Assembly (NCBI RefSeq): GCF_044647545.1
Contig: NZ_CP172818.1
Length of the DNA: 64,000 bases
Source of the DNA: Escherichia coli
Lineage (GTDB): Bacteria > Pseudomonadota > Gammaproteobacteria > Enterobacterales > Enterobacteriaceae
Direction: 5' to 3' (one strand)
This document shows positions 20,575-55,396 of this stretch, piece after piece (within the stretch, counting starts at the first letter, position 1; the number at the start of each line of letters is the position of its first letter). The position numbers were made by a program, and so were the translations under genes. The notes under the pieces are model-generated. The model was not told where the DNA came from. It worked only from the letters and a program-made list of their open reading frames with translations, and did no database searches.

Positions 20575-21702
<1,128 letters not shown>

Positions 21703-22029
21703 TTATGTTGGCGTTTTCTATTCAGTATAGAAGTGGGAGCGACTGGGCGAGATGCGGAAGTTCTGGAATATTTCTTTTTTTGGTGATGGTGAACTGATTG
21801 TGAGTGAAGCAATTTAGCTACTTTTTCAATGTGGCAAGTTATGGCACAGCTGGCTGGTGGCGAAGAATTTTGACGATTGAGGCATGCAGAAAAAACGGGC
21901 TCAGCTTCAGTTGATCAAATGGGGAGTGAGAAGTCCGAAACAGGATTCACTGTATAAATAAACAGCTATTTTGCTGAGGAAGCGTAAGATAACGGCGGGT
22001 GCCTGAAGCTTTCCGGTTTCAGGTTAACT

Positions 22030-22100
22030 CTGAGGTCTGGAAAGATGAAGCCCCAGGACGATATTTCTATCAACCCTGGGGCTGCCACTCCAAACCCGAA
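22030..22100 (-). ncRNA. sokE: Predicted Sok-type antisense RNA overlapping the mokE translation start (coordinates approximate)
   Basis: By analogy with hok/sok loci the antitoxin RNA is antisense to the mok start; on the minus strand a candidate promoter (TTGCCT, 17-nt spacer, TACCAT) sits near 22105-22135 and an inverted repeat (GCCCCAGG…CCTGGGGC) near 22049-22081. Ends not determined. Confidence 0.3.
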
Positions 22101-22233
22101 CAATTTGGATGGTAGTCCCTTCTTCGCATGGAGGCAATATAAACATGCTGACGAAATATGCCCTTGTGGCAGTCATAGTGCTGTGTTTAACGGTGCTGGG
22201 ATTTACGCTTCTGGTCGGCGACTCGCTGTGTGA
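22045..22233 (+). CDS. mokE: mok-type overlapping reading frame that couples translation to hokE
   Basis: 62-aa ATG-initiated ORF overlapping the first two-thirds of hokE in a different frame, the arrangement typical of hok/mok/sok loci. Confidence 0.4.
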
Positions 22234-22297
22234 GTTTACGGTGAAGGAACGTAATATTGAGTTTAAGGCTGTTCTCGCTTACGAACCGAAGAAGTAG
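22145..22297 (+). CDS. hokE: Hok-family type I toxin (small membrane peptide)
   Basis: 50-aa peptide [50 protein letters not shown]: single TM helix plus the conserved Hok C-terminal region. Confidence 0.85.
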
Positions 22298-22418
22298 CCG
22301 TTGTGCGGGGAGCAATCCCCGCATATCCGGTTGTCAGGTCAGGATGGTAAGGCACCTGCTTTACACTTTCGCCCGTGGTCAGTGATGGCTGCGGGCGAAT
22401 CGTACCAGATGTTGTCAA

Positions 22419-23039
22419 TTAATCGTGTTGGCACAGCGTTATGACTATTTTTTCTTTTATCTGCCAGTGCACAGCAAACTGCTCATCCTCTAGTCGAATG
22501 ATGATCTGCTGTTTATTCCAGCTAATTATCTGATAATCCAGAAAACCTTGAGCGGCCTGTATCTTGCTTGCCTTAAATGCGCTTTCTTTGGCGGAAAATG
22601 CCAGTGTCAGCGCCAGAGAAAAGGTTAAACCGCATTCTGCGAGTCGCTCGTGTTCTGCTGGTGTAATAATGTTGTCTGTCAATTCTCTTGCGGTTTGTAC
22701 AGAGAAAATCTCTTCGATATCAATGCCAATCGGTTGACGAGATACCACGGCTAATGCCGTAGTCCCACAGTGACTAATGCTGCCGTATACCCCCGCAGGC
22801 CACACAGGTTGGCGTAGCTCGCCGATTGCGGGCACACATTTATAGCCATATTCCCGCAGCGCATAAACTGCAGCGATCCGTCCGGCTAAATGCTCTGTTT
22901 TACGTTTACGTCCAGCGTGTTGCAGTTGCGCGTAGTGTGGCAGCCAGAGTAAATCCTGCTCACAAAAACTCGCCGGATCAAACTCAACAAAATGCAGCGT
23001 ATGTCCTACAAAGGGGAGGGCGGTATGCGTAGTTTTCAT
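22419..23039 (-). CDS. entD: Enterobactin synthase 4'-phosphopantetheinyl transferase
   Basis: Start chosen at MKTTHTALPF… (206 aa); the longer track ORF start is rejected; PPTase family. Confidence 0.88.
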   Translation of the reverse strand: MKTTHTALPFVGHTLHFVEFDPASFCEQDLLWLPHYAQLQHAGRKRKTEHLAGRIAAVYALREYGYKCVPAIGELRQPVWPAGVYGSISHCGTTALAVVSRQPIGIDIEEIFSVQTARELTDNIITPAEHERLAECGLTFSLALTLAFSAKESAFKASKIQAAQGFLDYQIISWNKQQIIIRLEDEQFAVHWQIKEKIVITLCQHD

Positions 23040-23213
23040 GTCGACCATATTAGAGACTGATGACAAACGCAAAACTGCCTGATGCGCTACGCTTATCAGG
23101 CCTACGTGGTCCTGCAATATATTGAATTGGCAAGATTTTTGTAGGCCGGATAAGGCGTTCACGCCGCATCCGGCATGAACGACGCGCACTTTGTCAACAA
23201 TCTGACGTTAGCA

Positions 23214-25454
23214 TCAGAAGTGAGTGTTTACGCTCATATACCACGTACGTCCCGGCTCGTTATAGGTATACGCCCCGGCACCTGCGATATAGTTGGCTCC
23301 TGCCAGATCGCCCGTGGTCTGGGCATTACCCGCACGCCACAAACGTTTGTCGAACAGGTTGTCCACGCCGCCGGTCAGACTGACATTCTTCGTCACATCC
23401 CAGGTCGCGCTCAGGCCAACAATGCTGTACGGGCTGATTTCTTTGGTTTCCGGTCCAACCGCTGGCTGACCTTTATAGTTGTACTTCTTCGGCTGCTGCT
23501 TGCCGTACCAGGTGAAGGTTGTTTGCATCGACAAATCTTCCCGTGCCTGCCAGCTCAGCGTTGAGTTCAACGTATACTCCGGGATGATCGACAAACGGTC
23601 GCCCGTGGTTTTGTTTTCACTCTTCAGCATATAAGTGATGTTATTGGTCCACATCACCGTTTCGCTAACCGGTACGTTTAACGATCCTTCCAGACCTTCA
23701 ACCACCGCTTTCGGTACGTTATCCCACTGATAGAGATCGGTGCCGACTGCGTTTTGCCCTACAGCCACATAGCCCGCTTCAATCTTATTGCGATAATCGT
23801 TACGGAACCAGGTGACGCCCGCCAGCCAGCCGTCGCGTTTGAACTCCAGACCAATCTCTTTGTTGATGCTGGTTTCCGCTTTCAGGTCATCATTACCTTG
23901 CAGATAGCAGCCGCCCGCGCTGGCATAGCAACCCTGACCTTTACTGTAGAGAATGTAGTTCGGGTTAGTCTGGTACAGGCTCGGTGCTTTATAGGCGCGG
24001 GCAATGCCCATTTTCAGCGTGAAGTCATCGCCTAAACCTTGCGATATGTTCAGCGCCGGGCTCCAGTTATTGCCAACAATGCTGTGATGATCGAAACGCA
24101 GCCCCGGCGTTACGATGGTGCTGTCAGTCAGCTCCATATTGTTTTCGGCAAATAGCGAGAAAATTTCTGCTTTTGAATACGGGCTACGGTCGGTGGCACT
24201 CACACCATCAATAGCACCGCCAGTATTCGTCCCAGTGAGCGCCTGGGTGTTGGAACTTAAATCCTTCATCCGCTGCTGATTCCACTCCGTACCCAGCGTC
24301 AGCGTCTGGTTAACGAGGAAATCAATCGGCAGGTTAACTTCGCTGTGCAGCATCACGTCATCGAGATCGATATCGACGAAATCCTGTGTCGCTTTTTCGT
24401 TAAATTTCCCTTCGGTACCGCCCGCCAGACCTTCCGGAATACGCGAGTTACGGGTGTGTTCGTACTGCACCCAGTTGCTGGTGGTCACGCCGTTATCCCA
24501 GCCACCGTTCCAGGTCAGCGAGTAGTTCTGGCGATACAGGCGGTTGGTTTCATCGCCATATTTCGAGCGAGTGTAAGCGTCAGAGTTGGTGTTCTGAGTA
24601 TCACCCGCATACAGGTTACCCTGGCGGCTGTAGCCCGCTTCCAGTTCGAGTGATTGCAGAGGCGCGAAGTCCCAGCGCACTACGCCATTAATATCTTTGT
24701 TAATTACCCCTTCGCGCCCGGCTGGTAACGTCGTGGCATACGTTCCGGCACGCGCGGACTGATGGCCCTGGTTGATATCCCACGCGTCAGCCTGGGTTTT
24801 GTCGAGGTTGCCATACAAGCGGAAGCTGAATTCGTCGCCCAGCGGACCGGTCAGGCTGAAGTTGGTGCGTTTGGTGGCACCTTCCTCTTTATGTTCTGGC
24901 GCATTGAAATAAGCATCCCAGGAGCCGTGCCACTCACCGCTGCCTTTTTTGGTAATGATGTTAACCACGCCGCCCGCCGCGCCGTTGCCATAACGCGCAG
25001 CTGCCGGACCACGCAGAACTTCAATACGTTCAATCATTTCAGGTGGCACCCAGGAGGTATCACCACGGGTATCGCGCTCGCCACGCCAGCCCTGACGCAC
25101 TGAGTTACGGCTGCTTACCGGCTTGCCGTCAATCAAAATCAGCGTGTTTTCCGGACCCATGCCGCGAATATCAATCTGGCGGTTATTCCCACGCTGACCA
25201 CTGGTGGAGTTACCGGTCAGGTTAACGCCTGGCATGGTACGGATGATCTCCGACACATCACGGGCAACGGGGTTTTTGCGGATTTCATCTGCGGTGATGG
25301 TCGAAACGCCAGGCGCCTGCAAGTTCTGCTCGGCGGCGGTAACGACAATGGTATCGTCATGTGAAACAGGAGTATCGGTCGGCTCTTGTGCCTGTGCTAC
25401 CCCATAAATCCCCAGATTGACCAACAAGGCCAGGGAATGAATCTTCTTGTTCAT
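23214..25454 (-). CDS. fepA: TonB-dependent ferric enterobactin outer-membrane receptor
   Basis: 746-aa precursor from MNKKIHSLALLVNLGIYGVAQA; TonB box DTIVVTA near the N-terminus; C-terminal …VNTHF terminal Phe. Confidence 0.95.
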   Translation of the reverse strand: MNKKIHSLALLVNLGIYGVAQAQEPTDTPVSHDDTIVVTAAEQNLQAPGVSTITADEIRKNPVARDVSEIIRTMPGVNLTGNSTSGQRGNNRQIDIRGMGPENTLILIDGKPVSSRNSVRQGWRGERDTRGDTSWVPPEMIERIEVLRGPAAARYGNGAAGGVVNIITKKGSGEWHGSWDAYFNAPEHKEEGATKRTNFSLTGPLGDEFSFRLYGNLDKTQADAWDINQGHQSARAGTYATTLPAGREGVINKDINGVVRWDFAPLQSLELEAGYSRQGNLYAGDTQNTNSDAYTRSKYGDETNRLYRQNYSLTWNGGWDNGVTTSNWVQYEHTRNSRIPEGLAGGTEGKFNEKATQDFVDIDLDDVMLHSEVNLPIDFLVNQTLTLGTEWNQQRMKDLSSNTQALTGTNTGGAIDGVSATDRSPYSKAEIFSLFAENNMELTDSTIVTPGLRFDHHSIVGNNWSPALNISQGLGDDFTLKMGIARAYKAPSLYQTNPNYILYSKGQGCYASAGGCYLQGNDDLKAETSINKEIGLEFKRDGWLAGVTWFRNDYRNKIEAGYVAVGQNAVGTDLYQWDNVPKAVVEGLEGSLNVPVSETVMWTNNITYMLKSENKTTGDRLSIIPEYTLNSTLSWQAREDLSMQTTFTWYGKQQPKKYNYKGQPAVGPETKEISPYSIVGLSATWDVTKNVSLTGGVDNLFDKRLWRAGNAQTTGDLAGANYIAGAGAYTYNEPGRTWYMSVNTHF

Positions 25455-25611
25455 TGTTTTATTCCTGCATTTTTGCCACGAATTGCAACTGTCGGGCATG
25501 GTCGTCATCAATACGACGCACCCCGCTACCGCGAAAACCTTTGATCCTGAAAGACACGCAGTGCAGTTGGTTAATTAATGTCCGCGCTTCCCACGGCGCG
25601 CCATTACGCTA

Positions 25612-51303: not shown

Positions 51304-51674
51304 TAATTTGTCCTTTTCAGTCAGTGCAAAAGTCGAGTAAAAGGCATAACCTATCACTGTCATAGGTAAGAGCTTAGATCAGGTGATTGCCCTTTGTTTA
51401 TGAGGGTGTTGTAATCCATGTCGTTGTTGCATTTGTAAGGGCAACACCTCAGCCTGCAGGCAGGCGCTGAAGATACCAAAGGGTAGTTCAGATTACACGG
51501 TCACCTGGAAAGGGGGCCATTTTACTTTTTATCGCCGCTGGCGGTGCAAAGTTCACAAAGTTGTCTTACGAAGGTTGTAAGGTAAAACTTATCGATTTGA
51601 TAATGGAAACGCATTAGCCGAATCGGCAAAAATTGGTTACCTTACATCTCATCGAAAACACGGAGGAAGTATAG

Positions 51675-55167: not shown

Positions 55168-55214
55168 TTTTACTCCATGTCGTCGGTACTGCGAGTGTCG
55201 CAGATAAACATACC

Positions 55215-55250
55215 CAAAAGAAAACCCTCACCGTCAGGCGGCGAGGGTTT
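55215..55250 (-). terminator. Hairpin terminator between rna and rnk (minus strand)
   Basis: AACCCTCACCG…CGGCGAGGGTT inverted repeat; on the minus-strand transcript it is followed by UUUUCUUUUGGG. Confidence 0.5.
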
Positions 55251-55396
55251 AACTCACATGATGATACTGACTGTTGCTCACTCTTTGAAGTGATTTGCGT
55301 CACATTCAGGGAATTCCTCAATGTAGCGCATTATGTATAAATCTTAATCGTCATGGTTTATGGAAGACGAATTAGCGTGTTTTGTAAATCAGAGGA

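Follow-up and report, generated by a model that had tools for sequence, protein, structure and literature searches.

The locus between ybdK and entD was very probably a complete chromosomal hokE/sokE type I toxin-antitoxin module of Escherichia coli, working through the refolding mechanism proposed below. The window, i.e., the whole stretch of 64,000 nucleotides that was analyzed, was E. coli chromosome with the gene order ybdK/hokE/entD/fepA, and many RefSeq genomes carried DNA 100% identical to the locus that was annotated as hokE and had the same neighbors (ybdK-hokE-entD-fepA). The module is an already known, ordinary locus. The Rfam sok model (RF01794) matched in full (model positions 1-157) at 21997-22153 (+), scoring 79.4 bits against a gathering score of 59. 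This plus-strand match was not taken as a sign of a plus-strand Sok, because the model is written in the mRNA sense and ends at the hok AUG. The earlier note had read the interval 21900-22330 as a hokE/sokE type I toxin-antitoxin locus, and the RefSeq hokE annotation, the Rfam sok and Pfam HOK_GEF matches and the projection of sokE from K-12 all backed this identification. The open reading frames, inverted repeats and minus-strand promoter on which it was built were all found in place. The interval held the core of the locus, but the fold-back inhibitory (fbi) element (22350-22357) and a terminal hairpin (22368-22399) lay outside it, and a LexA box upstream of the gene had gone unmentioned.

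The 50-aa hokE coding sequence was located at 22145-22297 (+), with the Shine-Dalgarno (SD) sequence GGAGG at 22131-22135 (+). Its DNA was identical to that annotated for WP_000956465.1, and HokE matched the Pfam family HOK_GEF (PF01848) over residues 5-46 (34 bits vs. a cutoff of 22), which confirmed the Hok-family toxin ORF noticed at first reading. The NCBIfam HokA and Hok models also matched, but under their curated cutoffs, and for this reason the name HokE rests on the Pfam match and the identical annotated DNA. Across relatives from several genera the median dN/dS was 0.15, which indicated purifying selection on HokE.

In the Hok family, Cys29 is combined with either an editable Tyr46 (TACG) or a hard-coded Cys46 (PMC5630033). 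HokE had Cys29 (TGT at 22229-22231) and Tyr46 encoded by TAC followed by G; this TACG motif (22280-22283, +) is the published site of A-to-I editing by TadA, which changes Tyr to Cys. The sequence GCTTACGAA around the site was near-invariant in 50 HokE-type loci, synonymous positions included, and editing of hokE mRNA has been reported at 40% (PMC5630033, PMC12214031). The K-12 HokE coding sequence has been reported as a known-toxic control on overexpression (bioRxiv 10.1101/2025.08.07.668861), and the HokE studied here differed from it only at residue 8 (A8 in K-12, V8 here).

Upstream of hokE, the LexA (SOS) box CTGTATAAATAAACAG was found at 21950-21965. It was the sole match to CTGT-N8-ACAG in the 64-kb window, and as ~0.7 such matches are expected by chance in that length, a lone match is weak evidence. 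The box lay at -47 to -32 from the inferred start of the hokE mRNA, i.e., over the -35 region of the promoter. The hokE-type loci of Escherichia, Citrobacter and Pseudocitrobacter carried it at an unchanged offset, and a CTGG variant occurred in Klebsiella. This conserved position fits the SOS induction reported for hokE (Fernandez De Henestrosa 2000, as cited in PMC1891008 and PMC11951105). The inferred -10 hexamer TAAGAT was at 21985-21990 (+), 6 nt 5' of GGGTGCC, and no good -35 hexamer was present, its place being filled by the LexA box. A TAnnAT hexamer (TAGAAT, TATGAT, TACGAT, TAGGAT and others) occurred at the same offset in all 18 related loci for which the upstream sequence was covered, and it was also visible in the leaders of the remaining related loci. 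A consensus scan of 21694-22420 (threshold of 9 of 12 positions) returned no promoter and no terminator. The hokE and sokE promoters escaped it because each matches at most 8 of the 12 consensus positions, and both were placed by homology instead.

By analogy with plasmid R1, the full-length hokE mRNA would extend from 21997 to 22362 (+), its 5' end GGGUGCCU coinciding with position 1 of the Rfam sok model. Its 3' end would lie just past fbi, and transcription may run on to the hairpin at 22368-22399. The initial GGGTGC was invariant in the 50 loci, and the stretch 21997-22362 folded much better than shuffled sequences (z = -6.6). This bore out the expectation of a structured mRNA, and the three inverted repeats that had been pointed out around the toxin gene all formed hairpins or helices. 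Inverted repeats of 6-9 bases are common in any sequence (31 pairs in 541 nt), but these three were real and conserved: they were kept as pairs in 96.6%, 85% and 96% of cases in the 50 related loci from several genera, compared with 20-60% when the partner columns were slid. They had been interpreted as the fold-back elements of hok mRNAs, and this part did not hold. None of them is fbi; they are instead a hairpin of the mRNA 5' end, the ucb/SD helix and a hairpin after the stop codon.

The first repeat, CCTGAA/TTCAGG, is by analogy with the metastable structure of R1 (PMC9841398) a metastable hairpin (22002-22023, +; arms 22002-22007 and 22018-22023) that would hold tac together with the sequence directly 3' of it. 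Its pairs were kept in 96.6% of cells in the 50 loci, and one C-G pair was swapped to U-A, in 19 vs. 19 sequences. The tac element itself (21997-22004, +), at the mRNA 5' end, was placed from the minimum free energy (MFE) folds of 21997-22362 and 21997-22328. The partner of tac in these folds was fbi when the RNA was full-length and ucb (22050-22054) once the 3' end was truncated. The core pairs of tac/fbi (6 bp) and tac/ucb were invariant in the 50 loci, and because of this invariance conservation supports the two pairings and covariation does not. The leader hairpin P1 (22009-22044, +), which was present in both MFE folds and sequestered GGAAAG just 5' of an ATG at 22045, showed compensatory changes at 10 of its 15 pairs.

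The second repeat formed the hairpin AGCCCCAGG...CCUGGGGCU (22049-22083, +) in the full-length fold, in which ucb pairs with the SD homologue through the arms AGCCCCAGG and CCTGGGGCT (22049-22057 and 22075-22083); it was conserved in the 50 loci. The pair GCCCCAGG/CCTGGGGC that had been described at the start of the upstream ORF is this helix, and on the opposite strand the same palindrome makes the terminator stem of SokE. An additional C carried by the source allele fell within the internal loop of the hairpin. In the truncated mRNA the predicted fold was different: GGGG (22078-22081) paired with the UCCC of dcb (22116-22119), which formed a Sok-target hairpin at 22078-22119 (+) with the loop CCCGAACAA. 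This hairpin was predicted only in the truncated form. Compensatory changes were detected at 6 of its 16 pairs, including GAGG/UCUC to GGGG/CCCC, and an A-U pair between SD and dcb covaried to G-C (40 vs. 9 sequences). The predicted folds switched from ucb/SD to SD/dcb pairing after 3' truncation, exactly as in the scheme for R1 (PMC9841398). Across the 50 HokE-type loci, the full-length structure had 86.7% of its cells paired and the truncated structure 88.1% (slid controls, 32-52%), with compensatory changes at 14 and 18 pairs, respectively.

The antisense RNA SokE (~61 nt) would be encoded at 22041-22101 (-). This position was projected by alignment from K-12 sokE (b4835, 607733-607792), and it agreed with the placement of the antisense gene made before any alignment. 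The predicted layout was a single-stranded 5' tail, GUUCGGGUUUGGAG, complementary to 22088-22101 of the mRNA, with a terminator-like hairpin and then a U-rich stretch 3' of it, and the fold was stable (-25.6 kcal/mol, z = -3.3). The promoter TTGCCT-17-TACCAT (22137-22109, -; -35 at 22137-22132, -10 at 22114-22109) lay 7 nt upstream of the point onto which the K-12 sokE 5' end mapped and agreed with the consensus at 8 of 12 positions. The minus-strand promoter-like sequence suspected at the Sok start was confirmed. The complement of its -35 hexamer, AGGCAA, overlaps the hokE SD; AGGCAA and the T, A and T of the -10 hexamer were invariant in 50 of 50 loci. The same hexamers, TTGCCT and TACCAT, were given for this spacer in a study of RNA polymerase holoenzyme binding (Shimada et al., 2014; PMC3946193). 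SokE would accordingly have the form of a cis-encoded antisense RNA whose own promoter overlaps the mRNA leader, with expression in the source strain projected from K-12.

The third repeat, GCGGGGA/TCCCCGC, directly followed the hokE stop codon. It formed the hairpin UGCGGGGA-GCAA-UCCCCGCA (22304-22323, +), whose arms TGCGGGGA and TCCCCGCA (22304-22311 and 22316-22323) were paired in 96% of cases in the 50 loci, and by analogy with R1 it is likely to form the 3' end of the processed, active mRNA. The fbi element AGGCACCU (22350-22357, +) began 20 nt past the end of the interval that had been reported for the locus. It is complementary to the mRNA 5' end and paired with 21997-22004 in the MFE fold. 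In 49 aligned relatives, searched with the pattern G[CT]ACC[CT], an element GCACC[CT] was present 35-70 nt past the stop codon, in most of them followed by a T-rich run. A terminal hairpin, TTCGCCCG...CGGGCGAA (22368-22399), lay between hokE and the convergent entD and formed the end of a unit (21929 to ~22398 in the window) that is tandemly duplicated in other strains. As a hokE terminator it is a doubtful candidate: no T-run followed the stem and the terminator scan was empty.

In K-12, IS186B was inserted inside the post-stop hairpin, with GGGAGTAATCCC on either side of the element in the alignment. The alignment with K-12, which had been named as a way to detect disruption, showed the window to be colinear across the insertion site. 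The source copy contained no IS186 and kept all RNA elements, so it is complete. Among 5426 complete genomes, IS186 occupied the 3' hairpin in 1911, and the 3' region was uninterrupted in 3627.

Taken together, the following mechanism was proposed, with RNA ends, 3' processing and Sok-mediated decay modeled on R1 and carried over to the source strain from other systems and strains. A weak promoter with its -35 region under the LexA box would produce a hokE mRNA of ~366 nt from 21997, and during synthesis the small 5' hairpin would hold tac. In the finished RNA, tac would pair with fbi, and GCCCC (ucb) with the SD-like GGGG, and in this closed form the RNA would escape both translation and binding by Sok. 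Slow trimming of the 3' end back to the hairpin at 22304-22323 would strip fbi. Then tac would pair with ucb and GGGG with dcb, and the Sok-target hairpin would appear. SokE, made constitutively from 22101 to 22041, would bind the trimmed form and block or destroy it. The 50-aa membrane toxin would be produced when hokE mRNA exceeds SokE, e.g., after LexA cleavage in the SOS response, with TadA editing of Tyr46 to Cys as a probable means of tuning its toxicity.

The closest known system was hokE/sokE of K-12 MG1655 (b4415/b4835). It occupies the same site between ybdK and entD and has the same leader, sokE region and LexA box, and its toxin is the same except for one residue. Unlike the source copy, K-12 carries IS186B 18 nt past the stop codon, which separates the ORF from fbi. 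K-12 also misses one C at GGA(C)GATA, so that the ATG at 22045 is in frame with hokE (83 aa), whereas in the source copy the two frames differ (62 aa).

The hok/mok/sok (parB) system of R1 shares the Hok-family toxin, a Sok -35 hexamer overlapping the hok SD, a homologous 5' leader (GGGUGCCUGAAG in the present hokE, GGCGCUUGAG in R1), the alternative tac/fbi, ucb/SD and SD/dcb pairings (mechanism in PMC9841398), and a hairpin directly past the stop codon with fbi ~55 nt downstream. In R1 the mok ATG is 58 nt 5' of hok, whereas hokE has no start codon there, and R1 mediates post-segregational killing of plasmid-free cells, a role that is not known for the chromosomal loci. In the R1-like copy, no CTGT-N8-ACAG box was found within the 40 nt upstream of the mRNA start that were covered. 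The chromosomal paralogues hokB/mokB/sokB and hokC/mokC/sokC of K-12 have the same leader architecture and Sok position, and the Sok 5' end is 44-49 nt 5' of the hok ATG in hokB, hokC and hokE alike. They differ in an annotated mok, which starts 57-58 nt 5' of hok and is overlapped by the Sok 5' end; hokE lacks one. Published work describes hokB as responsive to (p)ppGpp/Obg and not to LexA. The SOS-induced pairs tisB/istR-1, dinQ/agrB and symE/symR resemble hokE/sokE in that the toxin gene is under LexA control and the antitoxin RNA is not (PMC11951105), and in encoding small membrane peptide toxins. However, their toxins and RNA architectures are unrelated, there is no tac/fbi refolding switch, and IstR-1 and AgrB, encoded beside the toxin gene, are trans-acting instead of being antisense RNAs with full overlap.

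Several points spoke against the complete, working module. The canonical mok start codon, which is needed in R1, was absent; the sole upstream ORF that reached the hokE start began at a rare ATG with its SD buried in a conserved hairpin; and simple scans returned no consensus terminator or promoter. In addition, the uninterrupted chromosomal hokA, hokB and hokC do not cause post-segregational killing according to the literature, and deletion of hokE together with five other SOS toxins in K-12, where hokE is cut by IS186, left ofloxacin persistence unchanged. The caution expressed at first reading about the activity of this chromosomal copy was judged apt.

It could be argued that hokE is an inert relic, whose mRNA and SokE are both made and whose toxin is never translated natively since the mok start codon was lost. 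The position homologous to the mok start reads CCAAACC, and the canonical mok ATG was retained in only 9 of the 50 HokE-type loci. In many E. coli genomes the upstream ORF varies in frame or is cut short, and the frequent IS186 insertions in the 3' hairpin point in the same direction. However, purifying selection on HokE was clear across genera (dN/dS ~0.15), and the RNA switch elements, the Sok promoter and the LexA box were conserved, with some compensatory changes, which would not be expected of a dead locus. The 3' region was uninterrupted in most of the complete genomes counted above. Direct initiation at hokE is also conceivable, because its GGAGG was predicted to sit in a loop of the truncated-mRNA MFE fold. 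We consider the relic explanation unlikely.

The earlier note had described an out-of-frame, mok-type ORF overlapping hokE. The ORF was real: it starts with the ATG at 22045, 100 nt 5' of hokE, and encodes 62 aa at 22045-22233 (+); its frame is +1, and it stays open across the SD and start codon of hokE. As a counterpart of mok it did not stand, since mok in R1, hokB and hokC starts 57-58 nt 5' of hok, just past the SD at the base of the Sok-target hairpin, and by position the ORF would not be homologous to any of these. The ATG at 22045 might still be the true start of mokE, needed for HokE synthesis and covered by SokE as in R1. Its +1 frame is also that of mokB and of mok in R1 (at 100 nt vs. 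58 nt upstream), and the ATG falls within the stretch 22041-22101 covered by SokE. In R1, the mok start codon is needed for hok translation, and translation up to the hok SD matters and the Mok peptide itself does not, so a change of frame could be harmless.

On the other hand, this ATG was shared by only 7 of the 50 loci. Its SD was buried in the strongly covarying P1 in both predicted mRNA forms, so that 3' processing would not expose it. Among E. coli alleles the ORF was out of frame (62 aa, here), fused in frame (83 aa, K-12) or ended by early stops after 22 or 17 aa; in O157-type and other alleles it stopped before the hokE SD, and in R1 such stops abolish toxicity. The ORF had no match among Pfam or NCBIfam families, no mokE was annotated in the curated K-12 genome or by PGAP, and a literature search for 'mokE' returned no relevant paper. 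This ATG is quite doubtful as a required mokE start. Another candidate, the ATG at 22109, is in frame with hokE and occurred in 44 of the 50 relatives. It was set aside as a mok start because it is the complement of the sokE -10 hexamer and has no usable SD, and because the six loci without it still have the TAnnAT hexamer there (TACTAT). Chance intergenic ORFs and repeats without any functional unit can be dismissed despite the empty scans and the 31 repeat pairs, as the Rfam and Pfam thresholds were passed, the fold score was z = -6.6, the locus carries curated annotation in public genomes, and conservation with compensatory changes in 50 loci of many genera has already refuted this reading.

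Compared with these readings, the complete hokE/sokE module accounted best for the data as a whole. As a discovery it has little weight, because hokE/sokE has long been described and is annotated in public genomes. The description reportedly dates from 1999-2000, in the work of Pedersen and Gerdes (1999) and of Fernandez De Henestrosa (2000). What was added here is a precise map of the RNA elements of an uninterrupted hokE allele, and the correction of two tempting misreadings, namely where the fold-back element lies and what the "mok" ORF is.

A further idea, which we regard as speculative and rather improbable, is that hokE-type modules dropped the classical coupling to mok in favor of LexA control plus the tac/fbi/Sok switch, with hokE translated directly, by way of its own exposed SD, or via a lineage-specific AUG. 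If this were true, the lineage-specific upstream AUG would be nucleotide 49 of the mRNA, and single-base indels would shift its frame between E. coli strains: the overlap is out of frame here, alleles of the K-12 type would encode an N-terminally extended HokE of 83 aa, and those of the O157 type would stop early. Toxin production would then depend on the natural allele, both in its mechanism and in whether it is possible at all. As a working SOS-induced toxin, hokE would be better studied in an allele like the source copy, which is free of IS186, has an intact fbi and keeps the upstream ORF open through the hokE start, than in K-12, where IS186 severs the 3' regulatory part from the mRNA.

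The gene order across 20575–25511 was ybdK (−), a small + strand ORF, entD (−), and fepA (−), according to ORF calling and Pfam. A 751-nt query spanning the locus matched numerous complete E. coli chromosomes at 100% identity, and in this identical DNA, where the gene order matched that of the window, the RefSeq label on the small ORF was "hokE: type I toxin-antitoxin system toxin HokE." By identity and gene order, the window is E. coli chromosome, and its ybdK-entD spacer is the known hokE site. The hokE ORF (22145–22297, +) encoded 50 aa and matched Pfam HOK_GEF at 34 bits (cutoff 22), as expected from the Hok-family toxin described in the earlier note. The hokE/sokE locus is thus already known and had been correctly named, as supported by the Pfam and Rfam sok matches, the RefSeq label and the projection of K-12 sokE. 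HokE-type ORFs were under purifying selection (median dN/dS 0.15), and the overexpressed HokE coding sequence is toxic (bioRxiv 10.1101/2025.08.07.668861). A TACG motif at the Tyr46 codon (22280–83, +), unmentioned in the earlier note, coincided with the published TadA A-to-I editing site, where hokE editing is ~40% (PMC5630033, PMC12214031).

The Rfam sok family (RF01794) matched 21997–22153 (+) with 79.4 bits (gathering score 59). Since this match was on the + strand and ended at the hokE AUG, the model represents the sense strand of the hok mRNA leader, and the match is uninformative on the strand of Sok. The K-12 sokE gene (b4835, 607733–607792, minus strand) was projected via alignment to 22041–22101 (−). 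Its promoter, TTGCCT-17 nt-TACCAT (22137–22109, −), lay 7 nt upstream of the projected 5′ end and was missed by a 9-of-12 scan because only 8 of 12 positions matched the consensus. The same TTGCCT-17-TACCAT was given for the ybdK-entD spacer in the RNA polymerase holoenzyme binding survey of Shimada et al. (PMC3946193), and an R1-like plasmid copy had the analogous TTGCGC-17-TATCCT in the equivalent place. For comparison, one HokE scan over species-representative genomes yielded 54 loci from Escherichia, Citrobacter, Klebsiella, Kluyvera, Pseudocitrobacter, and other genera, and 50 leader-to-fbi sequences were aligned (A2). The sokE −35 (complement AGGCAA), which overlaps the hokE SD GGAGG, was invariant in the 50 loci, as were the T, A, and T of the −10. 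Together with the projection, this upheld the minus-strand promoter proposed at the Sok start. The 61-nt SokE was predicted to fold into a free 5′ tail, a strong hairpin, and then a U-rich tail.

In some strains, PGAP annotates an 89-aa antisense "hypothetical protein" (WP_009008364.1 and similar) over sokE and the leader (21907–22176, −). It was marked as a pseudogene with an internal stop in a genome identical to the window, and probably reflects spurious annotation of the conserved RNA region.

In plasmid R1, the inactive full-length transcript has tac paired with fbi (the fold-back inhibitory element) and ucb with SD-mok; after 3′ trimming, tac/ucb and SD-mok/dcb pairings replace them, and a metastable tac hairpin arises during transcription (PMC9841398). 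The predicted folds of the window RNA reproduced this scheme. In the fold of 21997–22362, the 5′ GGGUGCCU paired with AGGCACCU (fbi, 22350–22357), and GCCCCAGG paired with CCUGGGGC. In the fold cut past the post-stop hairpin (21997–22328), the 5′ end shifted to GCCCC (22050–54), and the released GGGGC and GUCCC made a new hairpin (22078–22119), whose loop and 5′ arm were complementary to the SokE 5′ tail. Compared with its shuffles, the 409-nt sequence had a far stronger fold (z = −6.6).

Across the 50 loci, the paired share was 86.7% for the full-length and 88.1% for the truncated structure, against 32–52% in slid controls, in which pairing was recomputed after partner columns were shifted. 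Compensatory changes occurred at 14 pairs (full-length) and 18 pairs (truncated). The strongest support was for the leader hairpin P1 (22009–22044, +), where 10 of 15 pairs had such changes, and for the Sok-target hairpin, where 6 of 16 did, among them the SD/dcb pair (A-U in 40 sequences, G-C in 9). For tac/fbi and tac/ucb, the cores were invariant, and hence conserved yet uninformative on covariation. The three inverted repeats that had been likened to fold-back elements were all found in place and, being paired and conserved across related loci, are genuine parts of the hok mRNA, but the fold-back element is not among them. The first, CCUGAA/UUCAGG, matches the metastable tac hairpin; it was 96.6% paired, with a C-G to U-A exchange that split the sequences 19 to 19.

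Eight nucleotides at 22119–22126, just upstream of the hokE SD, were also perfectly complementary to 22287–22294, in the last hokE codons (CUUCUUCG/CGAAGAAG). Both arms were highly conserved in the 50 loci and paired in the full-length MFE fold, and this predicted pairing may help to close the hokE translation start region.

In K-12, IS186B lies within the post-stop GC-rich hairpin of hokE (window 22304–22323), with GGGAGTAATCCC flanking the element on both sides, so that the hokE ORF is severed from fbi. Of 5426 complete E. coli genomes, 1911 had the K-12-identical junction, and 3627 carried one or more 3′ regions that, as in the window, were uninterrupted. Unlike the IS186-cut K-12 copy, the window locus was uninterrupted in the alignment, with all hokE/sokE elements contiguous. 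K-12 hokC likewise has IS186 just downstream. Persistence was unchanged in a K-12 strain without six SOS toxins including hokE, whose K-12 copy is IS186-disrupted. Tests of post-segregational killing are reported to have been negative for other intact chromosomal hok loci in a study that also mentions hok "islets" (bioRxiv 10.1101/2025.08.07.668861). Many E. coli genomes contained two tandem hokE modules with a period of ~503 bp (for example, L007 62–717 and L010 1103–1758, hokE regions from two such genomes). The unit corresponded to window 21929 to ~22398, beginning shortly before the LexA box and reaching the terminal hairpin, and the L010 copies comprised one +C and one −C leader allele. 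The window had a single hokE copy.

The LexA box CTGTATAAATAAACAG (21950–21965), which went unmentioned in the earlier note, spanned −47 to −32 relative to the inferred mRNA start. Downstream of it came a −10, TAAGAT, whose position is conserved, and the offset of the box was kept across several genera. SOS induction of hokE is attributed to Fernandez De Henestrosa et al. (2000), as cited in later papers (PMC1891008, PMC11951105).

Elsewhere in the window, the mechanical ORF list gave entD as 256 aa with a GTG start (22419–23189, −), which extends into the REP/ES036 region; the RefSeq version is 206 aa (equivalent to 22419–23039). Rfam ES036 (CssrF) scored above the gathering score at 23098–23139 (−) in the entD-fepA spacer, adjoined by a partial REP-like naRNA4 match under the gathering score (23144–23185). 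The sRNA STnc70 (44.1 bits; 51437–51530, +) and the rnk leader (124.9 bits; 55213–55321, −) also exceeded their gathering scores. No tRNA genes were found within the window.

Three corrections to the anatomy follow: fbi lies past the end of the interval first reported (21900–22330), the roles of the repeats differ, and "mokE" is not established. The mok-type ORF of the earlier note does exist, as 62 aa from ATG 22045 (+), overlapping hokE out of frame; however, it is not at the canonical mok position. In K-12, mokC starts 57 nt ahead of hokC and mokB 58 nt ahead of hokB, with the Sok 5′ end overlapping both; the R1 distance is 58 nt. At the aligned position, R1, hokC, and hokB have ATATG or AATG and hokE has CCAAACC, which leaves hokE without a canonical mok start. 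No mokE annotation was present in the K-12 or PGAP annotation, and a recent survey calls identifying mok "not trivial" (bioRxiv 10.1101/2025.08.07.668861). The GGAAAG SD of ATG 22045 was paired within P1 in both predicted RNA forms.

The frame of this ORF was set by 1-nt indels. The window allele GGACGATA gave 62 aa, out of frame, through the hokE start; the K-12 allele GGAGATA gave an 83-aa in-frame fusion; O157-type alleles gave a 22-aa ORF stopping ahead of the hokE SD, and another allele gave 17 aa. Of 5426 complete genomes, 2440 had the +C form and 4194 the −C form, counts that overlap because many genomes hold two tandem copies. In R1, what counts is translation reaching the hok SD, so by analogy the window allele could in principle allow mok-like coupling. 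ATG 22045 was found in 7 of the 50 relatives and is thus, on this alignment, confined to a small group. At the canonical mok position (A2 columns 100–102, ~window 22089–22095), just 9 of the 50 HokE-type loci had an ATG, in frame with hok in six. This suggested that mok loss or relocation is common within this HokE-type subfamily and not specific to E. coli.
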